64,000 bases of DNA from Eledone cirrhosa. Taxonomy: Eukaryota. The notes below the pieces were generated by a model. The model was not told the origin of the DNA. It saw only the letters and a program-made list of their open reading frames with translations, and did no database searches. Position 1 is the first letter of the stretch; the number at the start of each line of letters is the position of its first letter. This document shows positions 34,552 to 60,191 of this stretch, piece by piece. The position numbers and the translations under genes are program-made. The stretch is from positions 21,638,001-21,702,000 of the forward strand of contig OZ024741.1 of assembly GCA_964016885.1 (NCBI GenBank), in the 5' to 3' direction.

Positions 34552-35637
34552 TCAAATTTCTATGTCGGCCGGCAACCATTTTATAAAAAGAATTTCGTTA
34601 AGTGTACTGAACTTAAACTTCTGGGGACAGGCTGTGTTCTGAATGTTTTTGTCTGTTAACAGTTTACCGTCCTTCAGGTAATTCTTTTTGCTTTTGGTCT
34701 GGCACCAAATTATTAGTTTGTCAATGACAGGTGTTTCTTGCTGGACAATCTCTCCCACACCTCGAATGACGATTAAACCATATGATAGATATTCTGCGAG
34801 TCGCTCCTCTAATTCCGGTACATACTCTGACTTTTTTCTGTCTTTTTTCATCGGGTGTTTCATGTCTCCCCATATCCGACAACTATTCAACATGGTTATT
34901 AAGCTGCTGCTATCACCAATGCAGTCTTTAAAGTCAGCAAGCCAATCAACAATTCCTTTATAGTCGTTCATTTTCACTTCGGGTTTGCTTGTTTTTATAG
35001 CTTGTATAATTTTAGAACATTCTGTAGAACAGTTTGAAATCATTTCAGCAGTTTTTTCGCTGACACCTTCGAATAATCCTGGTTCATTTTCAAGAGGCTT
35101 TTCGTCCCATTCACTCCATCTTCCGAACAGGAGACAAGATTCAAGGTATACGAAAGGCGATAGAAGTACGGTCATAAAGTTAAGAGATGACTGGAGAGTA
35201 CATTCCCCGCCAATTATTAACTGCAACGTTGACAATGGTCCTCGTTTCGGGGGAGCTGTTCCGAATAGAGTTGAGGCTACAATAGATGCTACAGTCACTT
35301 TGACATCAACTTGAAAACCAAATTTAACGAGTTCACATATCCAAGGACATGTCTCCAGGTTAACAATCGTACATTGTTCCCCAACCTCATCCAAACATGT
35401 CCGGCACTGATATTCGAAACCTGATCTTCCAGGGGTTCCAATGATAATAGTTCTCTTTTTAATGTATTTCTTCATGGCTTTTAAATAATCTTGAAGAAGT
35501 TCAGGAGGTGAGGACATTATAATAATATCACTTTCTGAGATGAAATCTCCTGGTTTATCTGTTATTTCACCTGGTCTTCCTTTCTCGGAATACATAGAGC
35601 CATCTTTTCGGGGGAAGTTGATCAGCATTGTTGCGTC
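34552..35637 (-). CDS. Coding exon 2 (361 aa + stop) of an opine (octopine/tauropine) dehydrogenase-like protein
   Basis: Acceptor ...CATTTCAG|GAC GCA ACA ATG in phase 0, TGA at 34554-34552. Motifs GFEYQCR, LETCPWIC, PLSTLQ, LFGRWSEWD.KP, KHPMK, DKLIIWCQ, YLKDGKL and CPQKFKFSTL are colinear with molluscan octopine dehydrogenase as recalled (GFEFQCR, FETLPWAC, PLSTLQ, LFGRWGSWDGKP, VHPVK, DKLIMWAQ, YLVDGAL, CPQRYGFNTL). Confidence 0.92.
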   Translation of the reverse strand, partial: DATMLINFPRKDGSMYSEKGRPGEITDKPGDFISESDIIIMSSPPELLQDYLKAMKKYIKKRTIIIGTPGRSGFEYQCRTCLDEVGEQCTIVNLETCPWICELVKFGFQVDVKVTVASIVASTLFGTAPPKRGPLSTLQLIIGGECTLQSSLNFMTVLLSPFVYLESCLLFGRWSEWDEKPLENEPGLFEGVSEKTAEMISNCSTECSKIIQAIKTSKPEVKMNDYKGIVDWLADFKDCIGDSSSLITMLNSCRIWGDMKHPMKKDRKKSEYVPELEERLAEYLSYGLIVIRGVGEIVQQETPVIDKLIIWCQTKSKKNYLKDGKLLTDKNIQNTACPQKFKFSTLNEILFIKWLPADIEI

Positions 35638-35718
35638 CTGAAATGTTTAATAATAAAATTGTCTCTTAGAAAATATACTATATAAAAAGCAACAAAAACA
35701 CTAACAAAACAAAGTCAT

Positions 35719-36070
35719 TACTCTCAGATCTTGAATAATCGCTCCCCACTACCACTAATTAGTTTTTCAATCCCCACCCTGCTTTTATCCCCCCTTCCCG
35801 CTTATTAAATTTTGCTAATCTATCTCCGGTTAAATTTTATTGTAAGTGATTCACATTAATACAGCAGCTGGAGAATCTAATAATAATTTTATTTTACATT
35901 ATAAAAACATTATATATGACAAAAAAAGAACATTATAAGAAATCCGATATTTACGAACTATGCAATTACCGATTTCCCAACCCCTCCATTTACCCCCCCC
36001 CTTATAAGAATCTAAGCAAAGGCTCCCCACCCCACTTATTTCTTCCCTTATTATTTGGGACTCGAGAGTA
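35719..36070. mobile_element. Putative MITE (TA-ended, imperfect terminal inverted repeats) in the intron
   Basis: Left end TACTCTCAGATCTTGAATAAT; reverse complement of the right end TACTCTCGAGTCCCAAATAAT. Non-coding, ~350 bp. Confidence 0.55.
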
Positions 36071-36190
36071 CTTTAAAACTTCAAGGTTGTTGCTGTTGAT
36101 ACCTTGAGACAGTGATATTGGTAGTGTCTAGTGATATCACAAGATTTTCAAGTTGACAACAACAATATGTCGAACAATAGCGAAACATTA

Positions 36191-36810
36191 TTAGGACAGT
36201 AGTGAAATATTTAGAACATTAGTGAAATATTTAGGACATTAGTGAAATATTTAGGACAGTAGTGAAATATTTAGGACAGTAGTGAAATATTTAGGACATT
36301 AGTGAAATATTTAGGACAGTAGTGAAATATTTAGGAGATTAGTGAAATATTTAGGACAGTGGTGAAATATTTAGGACAACAGTGAAATATTTAGGACATT
36401 AGTGAAATATTTAGGACGGTAGTGAAATATTTAGGACAGTGGTGAAATATTTAGGATAACAGTGAAATATTTAGGACATTAGTGAAATATTTAGGACGGT
36501 ACTGAAATATTTAGGACAGTGGTGAAATATTTAGGACAACAGTGAAATATTTAGGACATTAGTGAAATATTTAGGACGGTAGTGAAATATTTAGGACAGT
36601 GGTGAAATATTTAGGATAACAGTGAAATATTTAGGACAGTAGTGAAATATTTAGGACAGTAGTGAAATATTTAGGGCATTAGTGAAATATTTAGGACAAC
36701 AGTGAAATATTTAGGACAGTAGTGAAATATTTAGGACAACAGTGAAATATTTAGGACATTAGTGAAATATTTAGGACAGTAGTGAAATATTTAGGACAGT
36801 GGTGAAATAT
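36191..36810. repeat. 20-bp minisatellite, about 31 copies, intronic
   Basis: Unit AGTGAAATATTTAGGACAGT; variation is concentrated in the last 3-4 bases. Confidence 0.97.
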
Positions 36811-37046
36811 AATATAATTTTCTATCACCACCAATGTCACAACGGGTTAAGATAGCGAATTCTGTGGGTTTGAATAACTTTACATCCCGTGAAGAGCTGA
36901 AAACTATGACCTTTCATGACTGACTCTTAATGTCAGAGGGAGACAAAAAATAAAACTGTAGCAATGGGCTTAGATTGACATATTTATAACCTCATCAAGT
37001 TCAAAAAGACTTTATTAACAAAACAACAATAACAATATATATATAC

Positions 37047-37199
37047 CTTTGCTTTCAAAGCAGTCTTCCAGGTGTCTACAGCTTTGCTTTCTGTGGCAAA
37101 AACTGTAACTTCCATGTTCGGCCTTGACGCAGCTAATCCTGCTATAAGTTGAGAAGCAGGATTACTTCCACATACCGTAAGTTTTACTGGGCTTCCCAT
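37047..37199 (-). CDS. Coding exon 1 (51 aa) of the opine dehydrogenase-like protein
   Basis: ATG at 37199-37197 gives MGSPVKLTVCGSNPASQLIAGLAASRPNMEVTVFATESKAVDTWKTALKAK, matching the ODH N-terminus (VKVCVCGGGNGAHTLSGLAASRDGVEVRV). Donor AAG|GTATAT is phase 0 and joins exon 2 in frame over a 1409-bp GT-AG intron (412 aa in total). A polypyrimidine-AG acceptor sits 5 nt upstream of the ATG. Confidence 0.9.
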
Positions 37200-37494
37200 T
37201 GTACCTTTAAAGATAAAAAAAAAAGTATTTGTTAAATCCTGTTGTCTTGAACAAGAAAAAATATTGTTGTTTACTGAAGATGTCACAGGAAAATTTCTGA
37301 CAAAAGAACTTTAGAAAATTATATTTATATTTATATTTTTAACTGTTGGTCAATCAATGATAAAAATTGATTGCCAATTAAATTATTTATAGAAATATAA
37401 AAATATATATTGAAGCGAAAACCAAACCAAACAGTAAGTGTCTTTTACTATTTTTGGCAAAATTAGAACAACATGATCCTTCCTACCAGAATAT

Positions 37495-37612
37495 TGATTT
37501 TTAATTTAAGCACATGACTAGAAAATTTGGCAAAGTTGATGATTAAATTAACCGCAGTACTTTACTGGTACTTTATTTTAACGACCTCGTAAGGATGAAA
37601 GGCAGAGCCGCC
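37495..37612 (-). mobile_element. Decayed tRNA-derived SINE body fragment
   Basis: CAGTAC...ACTGGTACTTTATTTTAACGACCTCGTAAGGATGAAAGGCAGAG matches 62598-62655. Confidence 0.7.
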
Positions 37613-38026
37613 TATTTACCACACTTTGGACAAGAAAAATATTAACAAAAAGAAATTACAAAGACAAGTTTGACAAATCTAATTCCGTGGAAATACCTTT
37701 AAAGTTTTGTTCATAGGGCACAGCCTAAACACCACCCCACCCTAGGCATGCAGCCTATCACCCTCTCCCCTTCTACCTCTCTTATATCTTTGGCCTTATA
37801 GTCCTTGCTCTTTCCTCTCATTTATGACATTTATAGCCCTTTCTCCTACTTTCCTCTACAGTCAGATCTGTCCCCCCCCCCGACCCTTCCCCACCTCTGT
37901 TCACTGCTTGGTTTCTTTTTATCCTTTTTCTCTTTTTCTCTTTCTTTCATATTTCCATCAATATTTATATAACTGTGAATTGATTTATTTCTAACATCAG
38001 CACTAAATCACAAATTTATTCTGAAG

Positions 38027-38098
38027 GACTATGTTAAAAAATAAACCTCATTTGGTCATTCCATGAGCGTATCTTGGTCTTTTCAACCGACCCTTGTA
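38027..38098 (-). mobile_element. Mariner-like MITE end fragment (same family as 62726-62810)
   Basis: Reverse complement TACAAGGGTCGGTTGAAAAG-ACCAAGATACGCTCATGGAATGACCAAATGAGGTTTATTTTTTAACATAGTCC is nearly identical to 62757-62809. Confidence 0.7.
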
Positions 38099-38279
38099 GT
38101 TAGTTATCTGCAATGCTAAATTCAGTTCATCGTAAAAGGTTCAACTAAATAAAAAGGTGAGATCCCACTGGTCCTATATACAAGCAATATCATAACAAGG
38201 GTTCTCATTGCTCGGTGATAAAGGCACTTTTGGTTCCCCTTCACCTTAATTAAAAAGTGTGATAATCCAGAGGGAATTT

Positions 38280-41200
38280 TACGGCCCCTCTTACCTCAGT
38301 TAGGAAGGGAATACCTCACGGCCCTTCTTACCCCTGTCAGGAAGGGACTACCTCATGGCCATTCTTACTTCTGTCAGGAAGGGACTACCTCATGGCCCTT
38401 CTTACCTCTGTCAGGAAGGGACTACCTCATGGCCCTTCTTACCCCTGTCAGGAAGGGACTACCTCACGGCCCTTCTTACCCCTGTCAGGAAGAGACTACC
38501 TCAAGGCCCTTCTTTCCTCTGTTAAGAAGGGACTATCTCACGGCCCTTCTTACCTCTGTCAGGAAGGGACTACCTCACGGCCCTCCTTACCTCTGTCAGG
38601 AAGGGACTATCTCACGGCCCTTCTTACCCCTGTCAGGAAGGGACTACCTCACGGCCCTTCTTACCCCTGTCAGGAAGAGACTACCTCAAGGCCCTTCTTT
38701 CCTCTGTTAAGAAGGGACTATCTCACGGCCCTTCTTACCTCTGTCAGGAAGGGACTACCTCACGGCCCTTCTTTCCTCTATCAGGGAGGGACTACCTCAC
38801 GGCCCTTCTTACCCCTGTCAGGGAGGGACTACCTCATGGCCCTTCTTACCCCTGTCAGGGAGGGACTACCTCATGGCCCTTCTTACCTCTGTCAGGAAGG
38901 GACTACCTCACGGCCCTTCTTTCCTCTGTCAGGAAGGGACTACATCACGGCCCTTGTTTCCTCTGTTAAGAAGGGACTATCTCACGGCCCTTCTTACCTC
39001 TGTCAGGAAGGGACTATCTCATGGCCCTTCTTACCTCTGTCAGGAAGGGACTACCTCACAGCCCTTCTTTCCTCTGTTAAGAAGGGACTATCTCACGGCC
39101 CTTCTTTCCTCTATCAGGGAGGGACTACCTCACGGCCCTTCTTACCCCTGTCAGGGAGGGACTACCTCATGGCCCTTCTTACCCTGTCAGGGAGGGATTA
39201 CCTCACGGCCCTTCTTTCCTCTGTCAGGAAGGGACAACCTCACGGCCCTTCTTTCCTCTGTTAAGAAGGGACTATCTCACGGCCCTTCTTTCCTCTATCA
39301 GGGAGGGACTACCTCACGGCCCTTCTTACCCCTGTCAGGGAGGGACTACCTCATGGCCCTTCTTACCCTGTCAGGGAGGGATTACCTCACGGCCCTTCTT
39401 TCCTCTGTCAGGAAGGGACTACCTCACAGCCCTTCTTTCCTCTATCAGGGAGGGACTACCTCACGGCCCTTCTTACCCCTGTCAGGGAGTGACTACCTCA
39501 TGGCCCTTCTTACCCCTGACAGGGAGGGACTACCTCACGGCCCTTCTTACCCCTGTCAGGGAGTGACTACCTCATGGCCCTTCTTACCCCTGACAGGGAG
39601 GGATTACCTCACGGCCCTTCTTTCCTCTGTCAGGAAGGGACTACCTCACGGCCGTTCTTACCTCTGTCAGGAAGGGAATACCTCAAGGCCCTTCTTACCT
39701 CTATCAGGGAGGGACTACCTCACGGCCCTTCTTACCCCTGTCAGGGAGGGACTACCTCACGGCCGTTCTTACCTCTGTCAGGAAGGGACTACCTCACGGC
39801 CGTTCTTACCTCTGTCAGGAAGGGACTACCTCACGGCCCTTCTTACCTCTGTCAGGAAGGAACTACTTCACGGCCCTTCTTACCTCTGTCAGGAAGGGAC
39901 TACCTCACGGCCCTTCTTACCTCTGTCAGGAAGGAACTACTTCACGGCCCTTCTTACCTCTGTCAGGAAGGGACTACCTCACGGCCGTTCTTACCTCTGT
40001 CAGGGAGGGACTACCTCATGGCCCTTCTTACCCCTGTCAGGAAGGGACTACCTCACGGCTCTTCTTTCCTCTGTCAGGAAGGGAATACCTCAAGGCCCTT
40101 CTTACCTCTGTCAGGAAGGGACTACCTCACGGCCCTTCTTTCCTCTGTCAGGAAGGGAATACCTCAAGGCCCTTCTTACCTCTGTCAGGAAGGGACTACC
40201 TCACGGCCCTTCTTTCCTCTGTCAGGAAGGGACTACCGCACGGCCCTTCTTTCCTCTGTCAGGAAGGGAATACCTCAAGGCCCTTCTTACCTCTGTCAGG
40301 AAGGGACTACCTCACGGCCCTTCTTTCCTCTGTCAGGAAGGGACTACCGCACGGCCCTTCTTACCTCTGTCAGGAAGGGACTACCTCACGGCCCTTCTTA
40401 CCTCTGTCAGGAAGGGACTACCTCACGGCCCTTCTTACCTCTGTCAGGAAGGGACTACATCACGGCCGTTCTTACCTCTGTCAGGAAGGGACTACCTCAC
40501 GGCCCTTCTTTCCTCTGTCAGGAAGGGAATACCTCAAGGCCCTTCTTACCTCTGTCAGGAAGGGACTACCTCACGGCCCTTCTTACCTCTGTCAGGAAGG
40601 GACTACCTCACGGCCCTTCTTTCCTCTGTCAGGAAGGGAATACCTCAAGGCCCTTCTTACCTCTGTCAGGAAGGGACTACCTCACGGCCCTTCTTACCTC
40701 TGTCAGGAAGGGACTACCTCACGGCCCTTCTTACCTCTGTCAGGAAGGGACTACCTCACGGCCGTTCTTACCTCTGTCAGGAAGGGACTACCTCACGGCC
40801 CTTCTTACCCCTGTCAGGAAGAGACTACCTCACGGCCGTTCTTACCCCTGTCAGGAAGAGACTACCTCAAGGCCCTTCTTTCCTCTGTTAAGAAGGGAAT
40901 ACCTCACGGCCCTTCTTTCCTCTGTCAGGAAGGGACTTCCTCAAGGCCCTTCTTACCCCTGTCAGGAAGGGATTACCTCAAGGCCCCTCTTTCCTCTGTT
41001 AAGAAGGGAATACCTCACGGCCCTTCTTTCCTCTGTTAAGAAGGGAATACCTCACGGCCCTTCTTTCCTCTGTCAGGAAGGGACTACCTCAAGGCCCTTC
41101 TTACCCCTGTCTGGAAGGGACTACCTCAAGGCCCTTCTTTCCTCTGTTAAGAAGGGACTACCTCATGGCCGTTCTTACCTCTGTCAGGAAGGGACTACCT

Positions 41201-44200
41201 CACGGCCCTGCTTACCTCTGTCAGGAAGGGACTACCTCAAGGCCCTTCTTACCTCTGTCAGGAAGGGACTACCTCACGGCCCTGCTTACCTCTGTCAGGA
41301 AGGGACTACCTCACGGCCCTGCTTACCTCTGTCAGGAAGAGACTACCTCACGGCCCTTCTTACCCTGTCAGGAAGGGAATACCTCACGGCCCTTCTTACC
41401 CCTGTCAGGAAGGGACTACCTTACGGCCCTTCTTACCCTGTCAGGAAGGGAATACCTCACGGCCCTTCTTTCCTCTGTCAGGAAGGGACTACCTCACGGC
41501 CCTTCTTACCCTGTCAGGAAGGGAATACCTCACGGCCCTTCTTTCCTCTGTCAGGAAGGGACTACCTCACGGCCCTTCTTACCTCTGTCAGGAAGGGACT
41601 ACCTCACGTCCCTTCTTACCTCTGTCAGGAAGGGACTACCTCACGGCCCTTCTTTCCTCTATCAGGGAGGGACTACCTCACGGCCCTTCTTACCCCTGTC
41701 AGGGAGGGACTACCTCATGGCCCTTCTTACCCCTGTCAGGGAGGGACTACCTCATGGCCCTTCTTACCTCTGTCAGGAGGAGACTATCTCATGGCCCTTC
41801 TTACCTCTGTCAGGAAGGGACTACCTCACGGCCCTTCTTTCCTCTGTCAGGAAGGGACTACCTCACGGCCCTTCTTTCCTCTGTTAAGAAGTGACTTTCT
41901 CACGGCCCTTCTTTCCTCTATCAGGGAGGGACTACCTCACGGCCCTTCTTACCCCTGTCAGGGAGGGACTACCTCACGGCCCATCGTGCACCTGACAGGG
42001 AGGGACTATCTCATGGCCCTTCTTACCCCTGTCAGGGAGGGACTACCTCACGGCCCTTCTTACCTCTGTCAGGAAGGGACTACCTCACGGCCGTTCTTAC
42101 CTCTGTCAGGAAGGGACTACCTCAAGGCCCTTCTTTCCTCTGTCAGGAAGGGACTACCTCACGGCCGTTCTTACCTCTGTCAGGAAGGGACTACCTCAAG
42201 GCCCTTCTTACCCCTGTCAGGGAGGGACTACCTCACGGCCCTTCTTACCCCTGTCAGGAAGGGACTACCTCACGGCCCTTCTTTCCTCTGTCAGGAAGGG
42301 ACTACCTCACGGCCCTTCTTACTTCTGTCAGGAAGGGACTACCTCATGGCCCTTCTTACCCCTGTCAGGAAGGGACTACCTCACGGCCCTTCTTACCCCT
42401 GTCAGGAAGGGACTACCTCACGGCCCTGCTTTCGTCTGTCAGGAAGGGACTACCTCATGGCCCTTCTTACCTCTGTCAGGAAGGGACTACCTCACGGCCC
42501 TTCTTACCTCTGTCAGGAAGGGACTACCTCACGGCCCTTCTTTCCTCTATCAGGGAGGGACTACCTCACGGCCCTTCTTACCCCTGTCAGGGAGGGACTA
42601 CCTCATGGCCCTTCTTACCCCTGTCAGGGAGGGACTACCTCATGGCCCTTCTTACCTCTGTCAGGGAGGGACTACCTCACGGCCCTTCTTTCCTCTGTCA
42701 GGAAGGGACTACCTCATGGCCCTTCTTACCTCTGTCAGGAAGGGACTACCTCACGGCCCTGCTTACCTCTGTCAGGAAGGGACTACCTCACGGCCCTGCT
42801 TACCTCTGTCAGGAAGAGACTACCTCACGGCCCTTCTTACCCTGTCAGGAAGGGAATACCTCACGGCCCTTCTTTCCTCTGTCAGGAAGGGACTACCTCA
42901 CGGCCCTTCTTACCCTGTCAGGAAGGGAATACCTCACGGCCCTTCTTTCCTCTGTCAGGAAGGGACTACCTCACGGCCCTTCTTACCCTGTCAGGAAGGG
43001 AATACCTCACGGCCCTTCTTTCCTCTGTCAGGAAGGGACTACCTCACGGCCCTTCTTACCTCTGTCAGGAAGGGACTACCTCACGGCCCTTCTTACCTCT
43101 GTCAGGAAGGGACTACCTCACGGCCCTTCTTTCCTCTATCAGGGAGGGACTACCTCACGGCCCTTCTTACCCCTGTCAGGGAGGGACTACCTCATGGCCC
43201 TTCTTACCCCTGTCAGGGAGGGACTTCCTCATGGCCCTTCTTACCTCTGTCAGGAAGGGACTATCTCATGGCCCTTCTTACCTCTGTCAGGAAGGGACAA
43301 CCTCACGGCCCTTCTTTCCTCTGTCAGGAAGGGACTACCTCACGGCCCTTCTTTCCTCTGTTAAGAAGTGACTATCTCACGGCCCTTCTTTCCTCTATCA
43401 GGGAGGGACTACCTCACGGCCCTTCTTACCCCTGTCAGGGAGGGACTACCTCACGGCCCTTCTTACCCCTGACAGGGAGGGACTACCTCATGGCCCTTCT
43501 TACCCCTGTCAGGGAGGGACTACCTCACGGCCCTTCTTACCTCTGTCAGGAAGGGACTACCTCACGGCCGTTCTTACCTCTGTCAGGAAGGGACTACCTC
43601 AAGGCCCTTCTTTCCTCTGTCAGGAAGGGACTATCTCACGGCCGTTCTTACCTCTGTCAGGAAGGGACTACCTCAAGGCCCTTCTTACCCCTGTCAGGGA
43701 GGGACTACCTCACGGCCCTTCTTACCCCTGTCAGGAAGGGACTACCTCACGGCCCTTCTTTCCTCTGTCAGGAAGGGACTACCTCACGGCCCTTCTTACT
43801 TCTGTCAGGAAGGGACTACCTCATGGCCCTTCTTACCCCTGTCAGGAAGGGACTACCTCACGGCCCTTCTTACCCCTGTCAGGAAGGGACTACCTCACGG
43901 CTCTGCTTACGTCTGTCAGGAAGGGACTACCTCATGGCCCTTCTTACCCCTGTCAGGAAGGGACTACCTCATGGCCCTTCTTACTTCTGTCAGGAAGGGA
44001 CTACCTCATGGCCCTTCTTACCCCTGTCAGGGAGGGACTACCTCACGGCCCTTCTTACCCCTGTCAGGGAGGGACTACCTCATGGCCCTTCTTACCTCTG
44101 TCAGGAAGGGACTATCTCATGGCCCTTCTTACCTCTGTCAGGAAGGGACTACCTCACGGCCCTTCTTTCCTCTGTCAGGAAGGGACTACCTCACGGCCCT

Positions 44201-47200
44201 TCTTTCCTCTGTTAAGAAGTGACTATCTCACGGCCCTTCTTTCCTCTATCAGGGAGGGACTACCTCACGGCCCTTCTTACCCCTGTCAGGGAGGGACTAC
44301 CTCACGGCCCTTCTTACCCCTGACAGGGAGGGACTACCTCATGGCCCTTCTTACCCCTGTCAGGGAGGGACTACCTCACGGCCCTTCTTACCTCTGTCAG
44401 GAAGGGACTACCTCACGGCCGTTCTTACCTCTGTCAGGAAGGGACTACCTCAAGGCCCTTCTTTCCTCTGTCAGGAAGGGACTATCTCACGGCCGTTCTT
44501 ACCTCTGTCAGGAAGGGACTACCTCAAGGCCCTTCTTACCCCTGTCAGGGAGGGACTACCTCACGGCCCTTCTTACCCCTGTCAGGAAGGGACTACCTCA
44601 CGGCCCTTCTTTCCTCTGTCAGGAAGGGACTACCTCACGGCCCTTCTTACTTCTGTCAGGAAGGGACTACCTCATGGCCCTTCTTACCCCTGTCAGGAAG
44701 GGACTACCTCACGGCCCTTCTTACCCCTGTCAGGAAGGGACTACCTCACGGCTCTGTTTACGTCTGTCAGGAAGGGACTACCTCATGGCCCTTCTTACCC
44801 CTGTCAGGAAGGGACTACCTCATGGCCCTTCTTACTTCTGTCAGGAAGGGACTACCTCATGGCCCTTCTTACCCCTGTCAGGAAGGGACTACCTCACGGC
44901 CCTTCTTACCCCTGTCAGGAAGAGACTACCTCGAGGCCCTTCTTTCCTCTGTTAAGAAGGGACTACCTCACGGCCCTTCTTACCTCTGTCAGGAAGGGAC
45001 TACCTCACGGCCCTTCTTACCTCTGTCAGGAAGGGACTACCTCACGGCCCTTCTTTCCTCTATCAGGGAGGGACTACCTCACGGCCCTTCTTACCCCTGT
45101 CAGGGAGGGACTACCTCATGGCCCTTCTTACCCCTGTCAGGGAGCGACTACCTCATGGCCCTTCTTACCTCTGTCAGGGAGGGACTACCTCACGGCCCTT
45201 CTTACCTCTGTCAGGAAGGGACTATCTCATGGCCCTTCTTTCCTCTGTCAGGAAGGGACTACCTCACGGCCCTTCTTTCCTCTGTCAGGAAGGGACTACC
45301 TCACGGCCCTTCTTTCCTCTGTTAAGAAGGGAATACCTCACGGCCCTTCTTTCCTCTGTCAGGAAGGGACTTCCTCAAGGCCCTTCTTACCCCTGTCAGG
45401 AAGGGACTACCTCAAGGCCCCTCTTTCCTCTGTTAAGAAGGGAATACCTCACGGCCCTTCTTTCCTCTGTTAAGAAGGGAATACCTCACGGCCCTTCTTT
45501 CCTCTGTTAAGAAGGGAATACCTCACGGCCCTTCTTTCCTCTGTTAAGAAGGGAATACCTCACGGCCCTTCTTTCCTCTGTCAGGAATGGACTACCTCAA
45601 GGCCCTTCTTACCCCTGTCAGGAAGGGACTACCTCAAGGCCCTTCTTTCCTCTGTTAAGAAGCGACTACCTCATGGCCGTTCTTATCTCTGTCAGGAAGG
45701 GACTACCTCACGGCCCTGCTTACCTCTGTCAGGAAGGGAGTACCTCAAGGCCCTTCTTACCTCTGTCGGGAAGGGACTACCTCACGGCCCTGCTTACCTC
45801 TGTCAGGAAGGGACTACCTCACGGCCCTGCTTACCTCTGTCAGGAAGAGACTACCTCACGGCCCTTCTTACCCTGTCAGGAAGGGAATACCTCACGGCCC
45901 TTCTTTCCTCTGTCAGGAAGGGACTACCTCACGGCCCTTCTTACCCTGTCAGGAAGGGAATACCTCACGGCCCTTCTTTCCTCTGTCAGGAAGGGACTAC
46001 CTCACGGCCCTTCTTACCCTGTCAGGAAGGGAATACCTCACGGCCCTTCTTTCCTCTGTCAGGAAGGGACTACCTCACTGCCCTTCTTACCCCTGTCAGG
46101 AAGGGACTACCTCACGGCCCTTCTTACCCCTGTCAGGAAGGGACTACCTCACGGCCCTTCTTACCCCTGTCAGGAAGGGACTACCTCACGGCCCTTCTTT
46201 CCTCTGTCAGGAAGGGACTACCTCATGGCCCTTCTTACCCCTGTCAGGAAGGGACTACCTCACGGCCCTTCTTTCCTCTATCAGGGAGGGACTACCTCAC
46301 GGCCCTTCTTACCCCTGTCAGGGAGGGACTACCTCATGGCCCTTCTTACCCCTGTCAGGGAGGGACTACCTCATGGCCCTTCTTACCTCTGTCAGGAAGG
46401 GACTATCTCATGGCCCTTCTTACCTCTGTCAGGAAGGGACTACCTCACGGCCCTTCTTTCCTCTGTCAGGAAGGGACTACCTCACGGCCCTTCTTTCCTC
46501 TGTTAAGAAGGGACTATCTCACGGCCCTTCTTTCCTCTATCAGGGAGGGACTACCTCACGGCCCTTCTTACCCCTGTCAGGGAGGGACTACCTCACGGCC
46601 CTTCTTACCCCTGACAGGGAGGGACTACCTCATGGCCCTTCTTACCCCTGTCAGGGAGGGACTACCTCACGGCCCTTCTTACCTCTGTCAGGAAGGGACT
46701 ACCTCACGGCCGTTCTTACCTCTGTCAGGAAGGGACTACCTCAAGGCCCTTCTTTCCTCTGTCAGGAAGGGACTACCTCACGGCCGTTCTTACCTCTGTC
46801 AGGAAGGGACTACCTCAAGGCCCTTCTTACCCCTGTCAGGGAGGGACTACCTCACGGCCCTTCTTACCTCTGTCAGGAAGGGACTACCTCACGGCCCTTC
46901 TTACCCCTGTCAGGAAGGGACTACCTCACGGCCCTTCTTTCCTCTGTCAGGAAGGGACTACCTCACGGCCCTTCTTACTTCTGTCAGGAAGGGACTACCT
47001 CATGGCCCTTCTTACCCCTGTCAGGAAGGGACTACCTCACGGCCCTTCTTACCCCTGTCAGGAAGGGACTACCTCACGGCCCTGCTTACGTCTGTCAGGA
47101 AGGGACTACCTCATGGCCCTTCTTACCCCTGTCAGGAAGGGACTACCTCATGGCCCTTCTTACTTCTGTCAGGAAGGGACTACCTCACGGCCCTTCTTAC

Positions 47201-49340
47201 CCCTGTCAGGAAGAGACTACTTCGAGGCCCTTCTTTCCTCTGTTAAGAAGGGACTACCTCACGGCCCTTCTTACCTCTGTCAGGAAGGGACTACCTCACG
47301 GCCCTTCTTTCCTCTATCAGGGAGGGACTACCTCACGGCCCTTCTTGCCCCTGTCAGGGAGGGACTACCTCATGGCCCTTCTTACCCCTGTCAGGGAGGG
47401 ACTACCTCATGGCCCTTCTTACCTCTGTCAGGGAGGGACTACCTCACGGCCCTTCTTTCGTCTGTCAGGAAGGGACTACCTCACGGCCCTTCTTACCTCT
47501 GTCAGGAAGGGACTATCTCATGGCCCATCTTTCCTCTGTCAGGAAGGGACTACCTCACGGCCCTTCTTTCCTCTGTCAGGAAGGGACTACCTCACGGCCC
47601 TTCTTTCCTCTGTTAAGAAAGGACTATCTCACGGCCCTTCTTACTTCTGTCAGGAAGGGACTACCTCACGACCCTTCTTTCCTCTGTTAAGAAGGGACTA
47701 CCTCACGGCCTTTCTTTCCTCTGTCAGGAAGGGACTACCTCATGGCCCTTCTTACTTCTGTCAGGAAGGGACTACCTCATGGCCCTTCTTACCCCTGTCA
47801 GGAAGGGACTACCTCATGGCCCTTCTTTCCTCTGTCAGGAAGGGACTACCTCACGGCCCTTCTTTCCTCTGTTAAGAAGGGACTACCTCACGGCCCTTCT
47901 TACCCCTGTCAGGAAGGGACTACCTCATGGCCCTTCTTACCTCTGTCCGGAAGGGACTACCTCATGGCCCTTCTTACCTCTGTCAGGAAGGGACTACCTC
48001 ACGGCCCTTCTTACCTCTGTCAGGAAGGGACTACCTCATGGCCCTTCTTACCCTGTCAGGAAGGGAATACCTCACGGCCCTTCTTACCTCTGTCAGGAAG
48101 GGACTACCTCACGACCCTTCTTTCCTCTGTTAAGAAGGGACTACCTCACGGCCCTTCTTTCCTCTGTCAGGAAGGGACTACCTCACGGCCCTTCTTACCC
48201 CTGTCAGGAAGGGATTACCTCATGGCCCTTCTTACCCCTGTGAGGAAGGGACTACCTCACGGCCCTTCTTACCTCTGTCAGGAAGGGACTACCTCACGGC
48301 CCTTCTTTCCTCTGTTAAGAAGGGACTACCTCACGGCCCTTCTTACCCCTGTCAGGAAGGGACTACCTCATGGCCCTTCTTACCTCTGTCAGGAAGGGAC
48401 TACCTCACGGCCCTTCTTACCCCTGTCAGGAAGAGACTACCTAACGGCCCTTCTTACCTCTGTCAGGAAGGGACTACCTCACAGCCCTTCTTACCTCTGT
48501 CAGGAAGGGACTACCTCATGGCCCTTCTTACTCTGTCAGGAAGGGAATACCTCACGGCCCTTCTTTCCTCTGTCAGGAAGGGACTAGCTCACAGCCCTTC
48601 TTACCCTGTCAGGAAGGGACTACCTCACGGCCCTTCTTACCTCTGTCAGGAAGGGACTACCTCATGGCCCTTCTTTCCTCTGTCAGGAAGGGACTACCTC
48701 ACGGCCCTTCTTTCCTCTGTCAGGAAGGGACTACCTCACGGCCCTTTTTTCCTCTGTCAGGAAGGGACTACCTCACGGCCCTTCTTACCTCTGTCAGGAA
48801 GGGACTACCTCACGGCCCTTCTTACCCCTGTCAGGAAGGGACTACCTCACGACCCTGCTTACGTCTGTCAGGAAGGGACTACCTCATGGCCCTTCTTACC
48901 TCTGTCAGGAAGGGACTACCTCACGGCCCTTCTTTCCTCTGTCAGGAAGGGACTACCTCATGGCCCTTCTTACCTGTCAGGAAGGAACTACCTCACGGCC
49001 CTTCTTACCTCTGTCAGGAAGGAACTACCTCACGGCTCTTCTTACCCCTGTCAGGAAGGGACTACCTCATGGCCCTTCTTACCCCTGTCAGGAAGGGACT
49101 ACCTCATGGCCCTTCTTTCCTCTGTCAGGAAGGGACTACCTCACGGCCCTTCTTTCCTCTGTCAGGAAGGGACTACCTCACGGCCCTTCTTTCCTCTGTC
49201 AGGAAGAGACTACCTCACGGCCCTTCTTTCCTCTGTTAAGAAGGGACTATCTCACGGCCCTTCTTACCCCTGTCAGGAAGGGACTACCTCACGGCCCTTC
49301 TTTCCTCTGTCAGGAAGGCACTACCTCACGGCCCTTCTTG
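38280..49340. repeat. 37-bp GC-rich satellite, about 300 copies
   Basis: Unit GGCCCTTCTTACCTCTGTCAGGAAGGGACTACCTCAC, with occasional 36-bp variants. It accounts for all the long plus-strand ORFs here. Confidence 0.99.
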
Positions 49341-49459
49341 CCAAGTCTCAATTTAGAAGACAAAACTATGGACCAGACATTGATTGATAACTAGACTCAA
49401 ATAATCGTCTAACCGACAACAGATGACATTTCCCGAGTCTTTCCTAACTATATTTTGAT

Positions 49460-49624
49460 TTGCAATAGAAATAGAAGTTCGCCGTAATATATACTAAATG
49501 ATATAGTCTAATAATGGGGCGTATAAACCTACTGAACGGAAAAACATGTACGCTGATATTCGGTTTATACGCCCCAATATTAGACTATATTATGTATTAT
49601 GGAGAGCTAATATTTCTATTTCAA
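49460..49624. mobile_element. Palindromic MITE-like element / foldback
   Basis: Inner arms 49501-49529 and 49562-49590 are reverse complements at 28/29 positions; diverged outer arms extend to TTGCAATAGAAATA / TATTTCTATTTCAA. Confidence 0.7.
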
Positions 49625-50204
49625 TTTTAAACTTCGCTCGCCAGGTTCCAAACATACTTCCTTTATTTAATTCTTGATATCCTGTAATGATTTAGCAGAA
49701 AATATCTAGAAACAGGTTTGTTAATTCAAATGTTTATAGTATCTTTACTAGTTGACAGACAATTGGGAACATTTGAAAAATTAGTGTAAAACATTCAGTT
49801 TTGATGTTTGTACTTTTTAAAAATATTTTGCTAATGCGGTTTCACTTGATTTGTTGATTCAAATGTTTATAATATCATAACTACTGGACAGATCGTTGTG
49901 GAGATTTACAGTAAATTAAAGACTTTAACTTTTAATGTGACGCCATCAGCATGCCGTTCTGTACTTTTCAAGAATATTTTGCTTATGTGGTTTCATGTGG
50001 TTCAGGACAATAAGATATGTTCTGATTTTAAAACAATTAGAAACATGCACGAAGTAATCTCTCTTGTATTTAAAAAAAAAGATGTCTCCTAGATTGTGTT
50101 ACAAGGACGAGAGTATGATACTTTTCACGGATGCACACTGCTATTTTTTCTTGTTTTAATTTGGGCTGCCGTTTCCTATTTTAAAATTTCAATTATTAAA
50201 GGTA

Positions 50205-51403
50205 CGATTTATATATTGCACTGGCCAAATACCTTGAAACAACAAACGACTGTATGCTGAAACTTGTTGAAAAACACGAGAAAAGTAAAAGCTTCATTCT
50301 ATCATGACGGAGAGCCAAAAATATGCTACTAATCTCATGCTTGATCCCCAGGCTAGACAGACTAAGGACTGTTGCAATTGATGCTGCTAAGCACATAACA
50401 TTAATGGCAAAAGCAAAATGGCAAGAGCAATTAGCATCAAAGTGGGAGCAGAAACCTGTGCATGGCAAATATGTGGCCCGCAGCAAACAAGCTGATGTTG
50501 ACGAAAAGCACACCCATCAGTGGCTACATAGCTCAGGGCTAAAAGCAGACAGTCAAGGCTTCACCTTAGCTGACCAAGATCAAAGCTTACTGACAAGGAA
50601 TTACCAGGCCAATGTGATGAGAAATGGAGTAAATACAAAGTGCCGATTCTGCAATGTTGAGGTTGAAACAGTGGACCACTTAGTTTCTGGATGTAAAGTT
50701 TTAGCACCAGTAGAGTACAAATATAGACATGACAGAGTCAGCATTATAAAATCAAAGCTGCTGACAAGTGGTACAATCATCACACTGAGTAACTGTGGGG
50801 TTTTCCTGTACATCCTGACCGGACCATAAAAGCTAATAGACCAGATATCAGTGTAAAAGACCAACATAGCAAGGTCTGTTTATTGATTGATATGAGCATC
50901 CCATGTGATCACAATATCGCGGCAAAAGAATTTGACAAGCTAAGAAAGTATAAAGATCTGCTTATTGAAATTAAAAAATGTGGCACCTCAAGGCCGTTAC
51001 AATACCAGTGATTGTGGGAGCACTGGGAATGATTAAGAAAGAAACAACAGTATTTGCGAATGATTCCTGGTTTACCCTCTCTGCACGAGGTGCAAAAAAT
51101 TGTTTTGACTGGTACTGGACACGTATTGAGAAGAGCACTATCGCTGTGAGAATGACCCCCCCCCACTTGTGTGTGTGACTGTGTGTGTGTGTGTGTGTGT
51201 GCGTGCGTGCATGAGTAGAGCACTATCTCTGTAAGAATGATATCCCTCTGTTAGAATAAGTTTTAAATTATATTCAATGTGGCGTGTTAACTGGCTTACC
51301 AATGTATACAATGAATATATTTGCCCTAGGTGTCAGGAAGACGCTCGGCATATATCAGTACAATACTGAAGGTAAAGGAAAAACAATAAAAAAAAATAAT
51401 AAT
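50205..51403 (+). mobile_element. 5'-truncated, frameshifted non-LTR retrotransposon with restriction-like endonuclease (R4/Dong-like)
   Basis: CCHC knuckle CRFC...ETVDHLVSGC, then YKYRHDRV. In another frame NRPDISV...LLIDMSIPCD...KEFDKLRKYKDL, then IPVIVGALG and EVQKIVLTGTGHVLRRALSL* (stop 51147-51149). 3' UTR has (TG)n and a short (TAA)n tail. Confidence 0.88.
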
Positions 51404-51685
51404 GAAAATTATTGTGTACAGTGCTCAGGTGCACTACAACTCATCAAAGGTGCATGTATAGTACATGGAATACTGTAGAAATGTCAGGAAAGTGAACAGT
51501 GTATGAGTCATGATATACACACAGATACATGCGTGCGTGTATATGGAAGGGGCATATCAGGTGTAGTGTTGGCGAATTTCGGGAAGCATGGAAGTTCTGA
51601 AGGATGCAGTGTCTCGACAGCTAACAACTGATACAGGCAGTTTGTTCCATGCGTCAGCAACTTTGAGCGCGAAAAAATGTTTATT
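51404..51685 (-). mobile_element. 3' end of a CR1/L2-type LINE
   Basis: Minus strand translates KHFFALKVADAWNKLPVSVVSCRDTASFRTSMLPEIRQHYT* (stop 51559-51557), the FF..V...WN.LP..VV ORF2 C-terminal motif, followed by a 3' UTR ending in (ATT)n. Confidence 0.8.
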
Positions 51686-51689
51686 AAAG

Positions 51690-51838
51690 CCTTCTCGAAT
51701 TTTCTAATAAGTCGTCTCCGAATTGAGAGATCACAGCTTCAATACTATGGGCATGTGATTAGAATGTCTCGGGAAAGAATCACTGGACAAATTTTACGGG
51801 CGAATCCAACACACAGGAGACTCAGGGGTAGACCTCGG
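51690..51838 (+). mobile_element. RTE-clade LINE C-terminal fragment
   Basis: Translates LRIERSQLQYYGHVIRMSRERITGQILRANPTHRRLRGRPR, the QL.W/Y.GHV.RM...RGRPR signature. Confidence 0.8.
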
Positions 51839-51874
51839 CCACCGCCATAACTTCGATTTTACTAACCTTCCATT

Positions 51875-51921
<47 letters not shown>

Positions 51922-52414
51922 GTAGAACACTGGAAGGTAATATCCGTAGTGGTAGAGCACTCAGTCCATGGGACGAGTTAGGTAGAAGTGGTTACACAAC
52001 AGTTAGTTCACCATACCGAGAACAATTGTTTCACCTTAGCGGATCCTCAGCTCGTAATGGACATGGTTATACGGAACAGGAAGCACAACCGTAGAAACGA
52101 TCACTACTAAAATGCGTGCGAGAGGTGTAAGGGAGATAACTGCGAAAGTCCGAAAAGTTTCTAGTTGATAAGAAAATTAGGATGTTGTAATTCAATCCGG
52201 AGCTTTTAGTTACGTAGAAGGTGTTTCGAGACGTGTGGACAACGTGTGAAGAATTCATTTCTCGTGTTTAGGCAATCGCTATTGCATAATCTCTTTAGAA
52301 TATTTATTCATTCATCAATACACAGTCCACACTACGGATTTCCCCTTGCGTATGGCTTGGACTTAGTGATGGCTTTCCATTGAATGGAGTAGTCTATACT
52401 TGAGTCCTTGAGGG

Positions 52415-52504
52415 ACCATACGTGGCTCGCGAGTTTCGTGGATGAACGTACCTTTAGGTACCCGGACAGACGTTCATCCACGAAACTTGCGAGCCACGTA
52501 TGGT
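52415..52504. repeat. 35-bp-arm inverted repeat
   Basis: ACCATACGTGGCTCGCGAGTTTCGTGGATGAACGT and ACGTTCATCCACGAAACTTGCGAGCCACGTATGGT, one mismatch, 20-nt spacer. Confidence 0.9.
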
Positions 52505-52512
52505 TGTCCTTC

Positions 52513-52515
<3 letters not shown>

Positions 52516-52602
<87 letters not shown>

Positions 52603-52612
52603 TTATATGTAT
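52516..52612. repeat. (TA)n microsatellite
   Basis: Seen directly. Similar TA/CA tracts lie at 51879-51918, 52904-52970, 58340-58445, 58950-59070, 59280-59325 and 60104-60331. Confidence 0.95.
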
Positions 52613-52699
52613 GTAAAAGGTAAACAGAAATAACAACACAATCGGTACAGTATATGGAAGGGATATATTAGGTTAACGCTTGATATAGCAGCAAGAGGG

Positions 52700-52735
52700 T
52701 CTTAACGTTTCGGACGCTAGTCCTTCATCAGAAGA
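52700..52735 (-). ncRNA. Minimal type I hammerhead ribozyme motif (Penelope-like)
   Basis: Minus strand UCUU-CUGAUGA-A-GGAC-UAGC-GUCC-GAAA-CGUU-AAGA: complete core, 4-bp helix I, 4-bp helix II and a palindromic ACGU helix III. Confidence 0.75.
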
Positions 52736-52767
52736 AAGAATGAGAAATAAGATATATATATCAGATA

Positions 52768-52890
52768 GGGTGTGGTAAAAAACCAGGTGGACCATAACCC
52801 ACCAGCGTATTAATTGGGGTAGTAGAGTGGGTAATATGAAAAAATTCAGGACCCCGACGGCTGAGCTCCGGCCGTTTCGACAGCTAGATC
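52768..52890 (-). mobile_element. Dispersed repeat, homologous to 59146-59270 (probable Penelope-like terminal repeat)
   Basis: Reverse complement TAGCTGTCGAAACGGCCGGAGCTCAGCCGTCGGGGTCCTGA...CACTCTACTACCC...TTATGGTCCACCTGGTT aligns with the plus-strand copy at 59148-59256. Confidence 0.7.
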
Positions 52891-52900
52891 CGCACTCTCT

Positions 52901-52971
<71 letters not shown>

Positions 52972-53469
52972 CTTATATAAAGTATATAAAGTCTATATAC
53001 TGGCCTAAAGGAACAAATGTACTTAAGTTAGCTTTGTATTTTATAATCACCAGGACATCCTTTATCAAACAGGAAAACCGTTCTGAATTTCATTCTTTCT
53101 CTCTTTCTCATCTTTCCTTTTTTTTCTCTTTCTCTCTTTCTCATCGTTTTCGTCTTTCTCATCTTTCTCATCTTTCTCTCTTTCAAATCGTTCTCGTCAT
53201 TCTCATCATTCCTTCATTCCTCTCTTTTTCATCTCTCTCCTCATTGCTCTCTTCCTCTCTTCCTCCCTTCCTCTCTCTCTCATCGTCCTCATCGTCCCCC
53301 TCTTTCTCTTCTCTTCTACTCATGCATCAAGTAAACAACAATTCCGACTGAGAGTTTAGTGACTATAAATAGCTTCTTATGTTTGGTCTCTCAGCCAGCG
53401 CCATACATGTGCCTGATGGAAGATAATCAGTGGTAACTGTATAGCTTAGCATTATGGCTCGTTACATAC

Positions 53470-56400
53470 TGCACCACCTTACACTACATTATACCACACT
53501 ATACTGCACCACATTGCACTACACCACACTACATTACACAACACTACACTACACCACACCACAATACACCACACCACACTATAATACACTACACCACACT
53601 ACACCATATCACACTACACCACACCTCACTACACCACACTACAATACACCACACCACAATACACCACACTATAATATACTACACCACACTACACCATATC
53701 ACACTACACCACACCTCACTACACCACACTACAATACACCACACCACACTATAATACACTACACCACACTACATTACACAACACCACACCACACCACACC
53801 ACACCACACCACACCACAATACACTACACCACACTACACCACACTACACCACACCACACCACACCACACTACACCACACCACAATACACCACACCACACT
53901 ATAATACACTACACCACACTACACCATATCACACTACACCACACCTCACTACACCACACTACAATACACCACACCACAATACACCACACTACATTACACA
54001 ACACTACACTACACCACAATACACCACACCACACTATAATACACTACACCACACTACAATACACCACACCACAATACACCACACTACATTACACCACACC
54101 ACACCACACCACACCACACCACACCACAATACACGACACCACACCACACTATAATACACTACACCACACTACATTACACAAGACCACACCACACCACACC
54201 ACACCACACCACAATACACCACACCACACTATAATACACTACACCACACTACACCATATCACACTACACCACACCTCACTACACCACACTACAGTACACC
54301 ACACCACAATACACCACACTATAATACACTACACCACACTACACCATATCACACTACACCACACCTCACTACACCACACTACAATACACCACACCACAAT
54401 ACACCACACTACATTACACAACACCACACCACACCACACTACACCACACCACCACACTACACTATAATACACTACACCACACTACACCATATCACATTAC
54501 ACCACACCACACTACACCACACTACAGTACACCACACCACAATACATTACACAACACCACACCACACCACACTACACTACACCACAATACACCACACTAC
54601 ACTATAATACACTACACCACACTACACCATATCACACTACACCACACCTCACTACACCACACTACAATACACCACACCACAATACACCACACTACAGTAC
54701 ACAACACCACACCACACTACACCACACCACAATACACCACACTACACTATAATACACTACACCACACTACACAATATCACACTACACCACACCTCACTAC
54801 ACCACACTACAATACACCACACCACAATACACCACACTACATTACACCACACCACACCACACCACACCACAATACACCACACCACACTATAATACACTAC
54901 ACCACACTACACCATATCACACTACACCACACCTCACTACACCACACCACAATACACCACACTACATTACACAACACCACACCACACCACACCACAATAC
55001 ACCACACCACACTATAATACACTACACCACACTACACCATATCACACTACACCACACCTCACTACACCACACTACAATACACCACACTACATTACACAAC
55101 ACCACACCACACCACACCACACCACACCACACCACAATACACCACACCACACTATAATACACTACACCACACTACACCATATCACACTACACCACACCTC
55201 ACTACACCACACCACAATACACCACACTACATTACACAACACCACACCACACCACAATACACCACACCACACTATAATACACTACACCACACTACACCAT
55301 ATCACACTACAATACACCACACCACAATACACCACACTACATTACACAACACCACACCACACCACACCACAATACACCACACCACACTATAATACACTAC
55401 ACCACACTACACAATATCACACTACACCACACCTCACTACACCACACTACAATACACCACACCACAATACACCACACTACATTACACCACACCACACCAC
55501 ACCACACCACAATACACCACACCACACTATAATACACTACACCACACTATAATACACTACACCACACTACACCATATCACACTACACCACACCTCACTAC
55601 ACCACACCACAATACACCACACTACATTACACAACACCACACCACACCACACCACAATACACCACACCACACTATAATACACTACACCACACTACACCAT
55701 ATCACACTACAATACACCACACCACAATACACCACACTACATTACACAACACCACACCACACCACACCACAATACACCACACCACACTATAATACACTAC
55801 ACCACAATACACCATATCACACTACACCACACCTCACTACACCGCACTACAATACACCACACCGCACTACAATACACCACACCACACTACATTACACCAC
55901 ACCACACCACACCACAATACACCACACCACACTATAATACACTACACCACAATACACCATATCACACTACACCACACCTCACTACACCGCACTACAATAC
56001 ACCACACCACAATAAATACACCACACTACATTACACCACACCACACCACACCACAATACACCACACCACACTATAATACACTACACCACACTACACCATA
56101 TCACACTACACCACACCACACCACACTACACCACACCACAATACACCACACTACACTATAATACACTACACCACACTACACCATATCACATTATACCACA
56201 CCACACTACACCACACTACACCATATCACATTACACCACACCACACTACACCACACTACAGTACACCACACCACAATACACCACACTACATTACACAACA
56301 CTACACTACACCACACCACAATACACCACACTACACTATAATACACTACACCACACTACACAATATCACACTACACCACACCTCACTACACCACACTACA

Positions 56401-58144: not shown

Positions 58145-58194
58145 TTGTCAGTCTCAGCGGCGGATTGGTGGAATGTAAAAGTACAGAGAGTGAA

Positions 58195-58365
58195 TGCCGT
58201 GGTTTAGAGGTTAGTGTGTTGGGTTTAGGATCGTAATGTCATGGGTTCGATTCCTGGACCGGATGGCGGGTTGCCCCAGTCAACTCAATTGAAAATGTGT
58301 TTCAACAGCAACTGGGCAAGCTAGCCCTGTGATGTACTGACATACATACATTCATACATACATAC
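58195..58365 (+). mobile_element. tRNA-derived SINE
   Basis: A box TGGTTTAGAGG (58200-58210), B box GGTTCGATTCC (58244-58254), short body and a (TACA)n tail. Confidence 0.7.
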
Positions 58366-58385
58366 ACACATTTATATATACATAC

Positions 58386-58426
<41 letters not shown>

Positions 58427-58497
58427 ATGTATATATATATATATAGTTTTTGAATTTGTTTTGGAAGATTTCTTATCTGAAAACATGTGTTCAAACA

Positions 58498-58952: not shown

Positions 58953-58993
58953 TATATATATAAATAAACACACACACACACACATATATATGT

Positions 58994-59036
<43 letters not shown>

Positions 59037-59068
59037 GTGTGTGTGTTTATATATATATATAAACATAT

Positions 59069-59270: not shown

Positions 59271-59277
59271 CTTCGTT

Positions 59278-59325
<48 letters not shown>

Positions 59326-59329
<4 letters not shown>

Positions 59330-60100: not shown

Positions 60101-60101
60101 C

Positions 60102-60146
<45 letters not shown>

Positions 60147-60151
60147 GTATG

Positions 60152-60182
<31 letters not shown>

Positions 60183-60191
60183 ATATCTATG

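Follow-up and report, generated by a model that had tools for sequence, protein, structure and literature searches.

Introduction

Among the closest known relatives of the protein reported here is the octopine dehydrogenase (OcDH; EC 1.5.1.11; PDB 3c7a, 3c7c, 3c7d and 3iqd) of the scallop Pecten maximus. According to structural work on this enzyme, a His-Asp dyad serves as the proton relay and Arg324 as the NADH sensor, while His212 is a ligand of the carboxyl group of arginine, and Glu142 and Trp278 are ligands of its guanidinium group (PMC2924402). A GXGXXA/G NAD-binding loop is treated as conserved throughout the opine dehydrogenase (ODH) family in another study (PMC11084901), and genome papers count members of this family by Pfam match alone (e.g., PMC12403961). 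Here, we analyzed a 64,000-nucleotide stretch of the genome of the octopod Eledone cirrhosa (assembly GCA_964016885.1, contig OZ024741.1, positions 21,638,001 to 21,702,000 of the forward strand; hereafter the window), whose minus strand carries a gene for an opine dehydrogenase homolog that has lost both the NAD loop and the catalytic dyad. Comparisons at the sequence level support the view that this gene encodes a conserved pseudoenzyme, i.e., that its catalytic residues were lost while frame and fold were kept under purifying selection, as judged by a protein-level proxy.

Loss of the cofactor loop and catalytic residues

The family relationship of the 412-residue product is clear from its last exon, which matched the Pfam family Octopine_DH (PF02317) with 39.1 bits (cut-off 30) and was matched by Pecten OcDH (3c7a) with an E-value of 2.8e-65. 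No obvious signal or membrane segment was observed. Like the Pecten enzyme, the window protein has the GFEYQC, PLSTLQ, LLFGRW and CPQ motifs and counterparts of Glu142, Trp278 and Arg324, and the same two-domain fold is present in the model of an ortholog. In contrast to that enzyme, the Gly loop, the VPAFAH loop, Gln118, His212, Tyr325 and the Asp of the dyad, which we take to be Asp329 in Pecten, are lost or changed, and a protein of this sequence would not be expected to be active. It reads GSNPAS instead of GXGXXA/G and has Glu217 and Tyr334 in place of the dyad, while the NADH sensor is retained as Arg330 (Table 1). Additional changes relative to Pecten include VPAFAH to SPPELL, Gln118 to Arg, Arg149 to Glu and PLFYQG to PGLFEG. 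The loop was aligned to that of Pecten through the Octopus bimaculoides ortholog (CGSNP(A/T)SQ), to which the window loop was aligned. Pecten positions were counted on the 3c7a alignment, and they agree with Met206, Ser207, Tyr208, Trp278, Glu142, His212 and Arg324 as numbered in the structural work (PMC2924402).

Table 1. Features of the probable pseudoenzyme gene in the window and residues compared with Pecten OcDH
Feature	Positions	Strand	Basis or remarks
First coding exon	37047..37204	-	5 nt of 5' untranslated region (UTR), ATG at 37199, codons 1-51; GT donor; X3 contig covers 37046-37204
Phase-0 GT..AG intron	35638..37046	-	1409 nt, after codon 51; contains a 20-bp minisatellite at 36191-36810
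Last coding exon	34552..35637	-	AG acceptor ahead of 35637; 361 codons (35637-34555), TGA at 34552-34554
Segment of the ~45-kb first intron (5' UTR)	37205..64000	-	Extends beyond the window end to the upstream exon (G000:C2:21720413); large satellite arrays inside
Degenerate Rossmann loop CGSNPASQ, codons 10-17	37149..37172	-	Pecten CGGGNGAH 8-15, aligned without gaps
Glu146, equivalent to Pecten Glu142 (arginine guanidinium ligand), kept	35353..35355	-	Alignment to 3c7a
Glu217, replacing catalytic His212	35140..35142	-	Ungapped alignment to 3c7a; family count
Trp283, equivalent to Pecten Trp278 (arginine pocket), kept	34942..34944	-	Alignment to 3c7a
Arg330, retained counterpart of the NADH sensor of Pecten, Arg324; in register from the upstream Pro; next residue, Tyr325, deleted	34801..34803	-	
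Tyr334, replacing the dyad Asp329 (His in Argonauta)	34789..34791	-	Alignment to 3c7a; family count

The preliminary description of this locus had proposed the replacement of the loop, the changes of His212 to Glu and Asp329 to Tyr, and the deletion of one residue; all of these were borne out by alignment to Pecten OcDH, and the Arg that it had regarded as possibly kept is indeed present. No His or Asp was found restored at the catalytic columns, in line with the pseudoenzyme reading. The idea that cofactor and catalytic residues were selectively lost holds for the motifs it named, but the loss is wider: of 82 columns that are nearly invariant in motif-intact enzymes (the same residue in 14 or more of 15 such family members), the window protein retains only 39. 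The losses are grouped in cofactor and substrate motifs, including GGGNGAH, DE, VPAFAH, Gln118, Cys-Arg, His-Pro, PLFYQG, Tyr-x-Gly and Glu-Asp, whereas structural Pro, Trp and Gly residues are retained.

These losses are not a matter of chance, because the corresponding residues are kept in nearly all family proteins counted: His in 337 of 358, Asp in 346 of the 355 covering the site and the third Gly of the loop in 333 of the 344 that reach it; Arg is present in 345 of 353 covered. The set comprised 358 distinct proteins of 340-560 aa (from 404) and is enriched for relatives of the query rather than being a random sample. The Glu142 column, which looks partly misaligned (71 Gln), was left out. 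Two or more of the four sites were lost in 17 proteins, of which eight were from octopods (the window protein included), eight from four other OcDH-type lineages and one from Lineus. All eight octopod sequences covering the sites have the same replacements, except that the Asp site is occupied by His in Argonauta and by Tyr in the others.

Several side observations concern the same residues. In the Argonauta protein (P0002), the His at the Asp329 position stands opposite the Glu at the His212 position, which is formally a swapped dyad; being found in one of the eight octopod sequences, it was rejected as a general octopod feature. Outside the OcDH-type clade, His212 is replaced by Asn in P0264 (Lineus), P0256 (Patella), P0257 and P0255, and the Gly loop is altered in L016. 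P0255, which is 1041 aa long, combines two degenerate ODH-like domains with a C-terminal one that presumably resembles phosphoglycerate mutase. In addition, the octopod orthologs share basic clusters (KKYIKKR, PKRG, KKDRKK and KTKSKK) that most motif-intact enzymes lack and that could represent a nuclear signal or an anion-binding surface.

Conservation of the probable pseudoenzyme in octopods

Orthologs with intact frames and the same losses were found in three named Octopus species and in Argonauta: O. vulgaris (CAI9736206), O. sinensis (XP_029646135), O. bimaculoides (XP_014770905 / A0A0L8HN49) and Argonauta hians (GAB1605835). All of these named entries carry the automatic label 'octopine dehydrogenase-like', and the octopod protein is probably a pseudoenzyme-like variant of a known family that has been mislabelled as an enzyme in databases. 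Full-length comparison of three orthologs with the window protein gave identities of 79-83%. Across the same six species pairs, identities are 79-94% for the pseudoenzyme versus 91-97% for the canonical ODH.

Constraint was assessed by a protein-level proxy for selection, in which point mutation without selection was simulated to an equal distance (500 runs). Replacements among the orthologs are conservative, with a mean BLOSUM score of +0.46 to +0.51 versus -0.45 +/- 0.19 (maximum 0.13) under neutral point mutation, and a stop-free frame survived in only 8 of 500 and 0 of 500 simulations. An AlphaFold2 model of the O. bimaculoides ortholog (P0007, 83% identical to the window protein) has a pLDDT (predicted local distance difference test) of 92.5 and superposes on OcDH 3iqd with a template-modeling (TM) score of 0.92, a root-mean-square deviation of 2.0 and 32% identity. 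The window protein is thus predicted to keep the two-domain OcDH fold, composed of a Rossmann and a helical domain.

No ortholog from squid or cuttlefish was recognized in the protein searches; in the 50%-identity set, however, the Argonauta representative could conceal a squid ortholog with more than 50% identity. In 69 metagenome loci, no octopod-type ortholog was recognized either (best segments 25-42% identical), and the octopod motifs were present in none of the five full open reading frames (ORFs) among seven translated. A search of the ESM Atlas returned PF02317 clusters only.

Gene structure and transcription

The spliced 412-aa ORF with phase-0 splice sites and no stops, as first described, agrees with our reading of the genome (two coding exons, no internal stop) and with a 1610-nt contig of the public run X3. 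This contig is identical to the genome at 34579-35639, proceeds directly into the first coding exon (matched at 37046-37204) and then continues into the sequence of an upstream exon. Since it joins the exons exactly, the gene is transcribed and spliced in at least one sample; the contig, whose kind and tissue are not recorded, serves as evidence of splicing alone, and its depth carries no information on expression. In the genome search, no second close copy that could be a retrocopy source for this contig was found. Runs X1 and X2 yielded genomic-type contigs in which the sequence passes on into the intron.

The upstream exon is found at a single place in the genome (G000:C2:21720413), ~45 kb upstream and beyond the window, and has a GTAAGT donor. 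It contains an in-frame TAA ahead of the ATG, which implies that 412 aa is the full product here. In O. vulgaris (P0001), the stretch matching this exon (L005:1501-1530, ..RCCRDVCT into ATG) is annotated as a short N-terminal extension, which may be an annotation artefact given the in-frame stop in Eledone.

A second, motif-intact opine dehydrogenase in the same genome

A search of the genome with protein and Pfam queries revealed at least two family matches, the window gene and a motif-intact ODH (L002:1339-2556, at 149.25 Mb, G000:C2) located on the same contig ~127 Mb from the window gene. L002 has an uninterrupted coding frame and all catalytic motifs. It is 91-92% identical to the 'opine dehydrogenase' of Octopus and Argonauta and 82-83% identical to the named ODHs of Sepia and Loligo, and shares 31% identity with the pseudoenzyme. 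Judging from these motifs, L002 likely supplies octopine in this genome.

The cephalopod ODHs, such as those of Sepia officinalis (CAC36306) and Loligo vulgaris (CAC36301), the Octopus 'opine dehydrogenase' and L002, belong to the same Pfam family (PF02317) as the pseudoenzyme, and both types are found in the same genomes. They differ from it in that they are only 30-31% identical to it, have intact catalytic motifs and fall into another clade. On the other hand, the octopod 'octopine dehydrogenase-like' entries are orthologs of the window protein and share its active-site replacements, with His at the Asp site in Argonauta.

An acceptor-like AG lies ~14 nt before the ATG of L002, and the pseudoenzyme gene likewise has a 5' UTR intron that ends just before its ATG. 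Cuttlefish apparently have two types of motif-intact ODH of the cephalopod clade (P0236/P0237 versus P0222); the 405-aa type is 74% and the 409-aa type 83% identical to L002, and one type was found in the octopod genome.

Origin and relatives of the probable pseudoenzyme

In phylogenetic trees, the pseudoenzyme grouped with the scallop-type OcDH clade, with support of 82/99 for all columns and 89/100 when active-site columns were dropped. Pecten OcDH itself was not in these trees, its place being taken by proteins from Potamilus (P0021), Sinanodonta (P0250) and a Solemya cluster (P0185); branches are long throughout, and the 60-row tree is a quick tree, in which the pseudoenzyme has a long stem branch. 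A recent duplication of the cephalopod ODH, tested as a sister grouping, was rejected by the approximately unbiased (AU) test with p = 6e-5, and with p = 3e-11 after removal of 59 active-site columns. A direct sister relationship between the octopod gene and the active OcDH-type proteins alone was also rejected (p = 0.009, with the caveat of long branches). Thus, the gene is an opine dehydrogenase homolog as initially proposed, but one derived from the scallop-type clade and not from the cephalopod ODH.

The nearest non-octopod matches among representatives at 50% identity (P0251-P0254) are 36-37% identical to the octopod protein. In P0252, which was the sister of the octopod gene in both careful trees (79/85 and 83/93), His is replaced by Tyr and Arg by Ser. 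P0253, whose cluster contains a protein of the ark clam Tegillarca granosa, has Gly for His and Gln for Arg, and P0254 has Arg for His and a deletion of the Arg. P0251 is partly degenerate, with an altered loop and with His, Arg and Asp kept, and a more distant protein from a cluster of the chiton Liolophura (P0267) is also degenerate. The octopod form is the most extreme, because all of the degenerate non-octopod relatives keep the Asp and three of five keep Gly-x-Gly. The gene is not obviously a cephalopod invention, since its nearest relatives outside octopods are degenerate as well.

Whether the degenerate chiton, bivalve and octopod proteins form one group depends on the data used. Such a group received 43/92 with all columns and 89 in the Shimodaira-Hasegawa-like approximate likelihood ratio test (SH-aLRT) of the quick tree, and was present in 4% of 200 bootstrap trees when the 59 active-site columns were dropped; its monophyly was not rejected by the AU test (p = 0.3). 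We tentatively suggest, at somewhat less than an even chance, that these proteins could constitute an unrecognized pan-molluscan pseudo-dehydrogenase subfamily, which would have arisen by duplication of a scallop-type OcDH before the split of chitons, bivalves and cephalopods and been retained in a non-catalytic role since. In octopods, the active scallop-type enzyme would then have disappeared, leaving this dead branch alone, and octopine would come from an enzyme that belongs to the tauropine/alanopine-type clade.

Possible functions

Based on the residues lost, it is probable that the protein is catalytically inactive. With regard to its role, we consider it about an even bet that it is a soluble, non-catalytic protein-binding or scaffolding protein, while the motif-intact ODH likely makes octopine. 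According to this proposal, a scallop-type ODH relative would have lost its NAD loop and catalytic His and Asp and kept its fold. NADH would no longer be bound because Pro14 and Pro96 would remove backbone amides in the nucleotide loops, in addition to the changes of Gly13 to Asn or Glu and of Arg153 and Gln241 to Glu, and a proton relay would not operate without the dyad. Selection would act on the folded body and surface and not on the rebuilt active site, which would point to contact with another macromolecule (the weakest step), and the octopine chemistry would be carried out by the separate gene L002. A scaffold is favored over a new catalytic site because invariance among the four octopods is no greater at the remodelled positions of the active site than in the whole protein (26 of 42 versus 299 of 412), and constraint looks spread over the fold.

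Several points weigh against a scaffold. The contrast between the two fractions just given is weak. A rebuilt pocket is possible, considering that Arg324, Glu142 and Trp278 are kept and that Glu217, Glu153, Glu241 and Arg122 are invariant among the four octopods. The pseudoenzyme evolves at about twice the rate of the canonical ODH at the protein level, and the P0007 model leans towards the motif-intact fold because its alignment consists mostly of motif-intact enzymes. Furthermore, the non-octopod relatives that keep Gly-x-Gly and Asp may still bind NAD, so that their function need not equal that of the octopod protein.

Among the alternatives, it seems unlikely that the remodelled cleft binds or senses a cationic metabolite (arginine, agmatine or octopine) independently of a cofactor. 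In scallop OcDH, the guanidinium group of arginine and agmatine is held by Glu142 and Trp278 (PMC2924402), both of which are retained in the window protein. The cleft gains the invariant acidic residues Glu217, Glu153 and Glu241, and a Glu in place of His212 would fit a ligand that lacks a carboxylate, e.g., agmatine. However, Glu142 and Trp278 are widespread in the family, conservation at the remodelled cleft sites does not exceed that of the remaining protein, and no binding of arginine to apo OcDH without NADH was detected by nuclear magnetic resonance (PMC2924402). The latter result weakens the arginine or opine binder proposed in the preliminary description, for which the two retained ligands still speak.

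Enzyme-derived lens proteins provide another analogy. Cephalopod S-crystallin is derived from GST and omega-crystallin from ALDH, and these enzyme-crystallins keep an enzyme fold with little or no activity. A crystallin-like bulk structural protein would accordingly resemble the window protein in combining an enzyme fold with a dead active site, and the four octopod sequences contain 13-15 Cys residues versus 8-12 in the four cephalopod ODHs counted. Unlike the crystallins, the window protein has degenerate relatives outside cephalopods, in ark clam and chiton, animals that are not known to have a protein lens of the cephalopod type. It is also single-copy in the genome search, whereas the SL20-1 S-crystallin subfamily is reported to be expanded in flying squid (PMC10225486). 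A crystallin-like role is a somewhat less likely candidate than a metabolite binder.

It is more doubtful still that the protein has remained catalytic, be it by using its cofactor in another way or by carrying out a new reaction. The fold and Arg324 are kept, the relative P0251 has His, Arg and Asp despite its altered loop, and in Argonauta Glu217 and His334, which occupy the His212 and Asp329 positions, could work as a swapped dyad. On the other hand, the other seven octopod sequences have Tyr and not His at the Asp site. Dinucleotide binding by a Rossmann domain is difficult with prolines in the loops and without the loop glycines; the octopod protein has Pro in both nucleotide loops and lacks the second and third loop Gly, which is hard to square with such binding.

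Regulation of an active paralog is a common role of pseudoenzymes, and the protein might form a heterodimer with the active ODH and tune octopine formation in muscle. Both genes are located on one contig here, and both orthologs are listed on equally long contigs in O. vulgaris, O. bimaculoides and Argonauta. This scenario appears improbable, as the paralogs are ~127 Mb apart, only 31% identical and from different clades, and scallop OcDH is a monomer (PMC2924402). Finally, a decaying, functionless duplicate is hardly credible: its faster protein evolution compared with canonical ODH and the long stem branch could be read in that way, but the frame is intact in three named Octopus species, Argonauta and this genome, a spliced transcript exists, the ortholog model is confident, and the conservative replacements, set against the neutral simulation, point towards a ratio of nonsynonymous to synonymous substitution rates (dN/dS) below 1, in line with the fold-preserving pseudoenzyme originally envisaged.

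Previous reports and expression

A full-text literature search, with most subscription journals outside its reach, found no description of an inactive opine dehydrogenase, and a full-text search that included three accessions of the octopod orthologs found no paper on them. Among the rows listed in the available part of the O. vulgaris ink proteome supplement, only the canonical ODH was found, and two pseudoenzyme accessions had no match. The pseudoenzyme was also not found in the available parts of the supplements of a skin mucus proteome, an O. maya testis transcriptome, a paralarval proteome and a developing-brain atlas (sources of these tissue searches include PMC5434110, PMC9712504, PMC10142993, PMC10138644 and PMC6341066). 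In flying squid, 'odh1' is reported to be enriched in photophore tissue (PMC10225486) and cannot be assigned to either paralog; a search of 12 of the 20 supplements of that study gave no match. Its co-expression with glycogen-metabolism genes fits the active enzyme (PMC10225486).

Satellite DNA around the gene

The window consists mostly of satellite DNA, and apart from the pseudoenzyme gene the long ORFs at 30-42 kb and 49.4-64 kb are mostly repeat translations. An 88-bp tandem array of ~380 copies with 95% match occupies positions 1-33624 and ends within 1 kb of the stop codon of the gene. Inside the 5' UTR intron, a 37-bp satellite (~299 copies, GC content ~55%) is located at 38281-49339; its stop-free plus-strand frames of up to 1283 aa are most likely a by-product of the unit sequence. 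Two more arrays lie in this intron, at 53480-58144 and 60584-62111. One is built of a 5-bp TACAC/CACAC unit and is extremely GC-skewed; the other repeats a 45-bp unit 34 times and has open frames in both orientations. A stop-to-stop frame of 173 aa at 50308-50829 presumably resembles the C-terminal zinc-knuckle region of a non-LTR (long terminal repeat) retrotransposon.

Implications for the opine dehydrogenase family

Since pseudoenzymes are a common phenomenon, this finding is of limited surprise. Nevertheless, opine dehydrogenases have been treated as uniformly catalytic, and an intact and conserved member without the cofactor loop or the dyad departs from that picture. Of the octopod genes, the one most closely related to the well-known scallop enzyme is degenerate, whereas the motif-intact cephalopod ODH belongs to another clade. 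Some molluscan 'octopine dehydrogenase-like' annotations are therefore probably no mark of anaerobic capacity.

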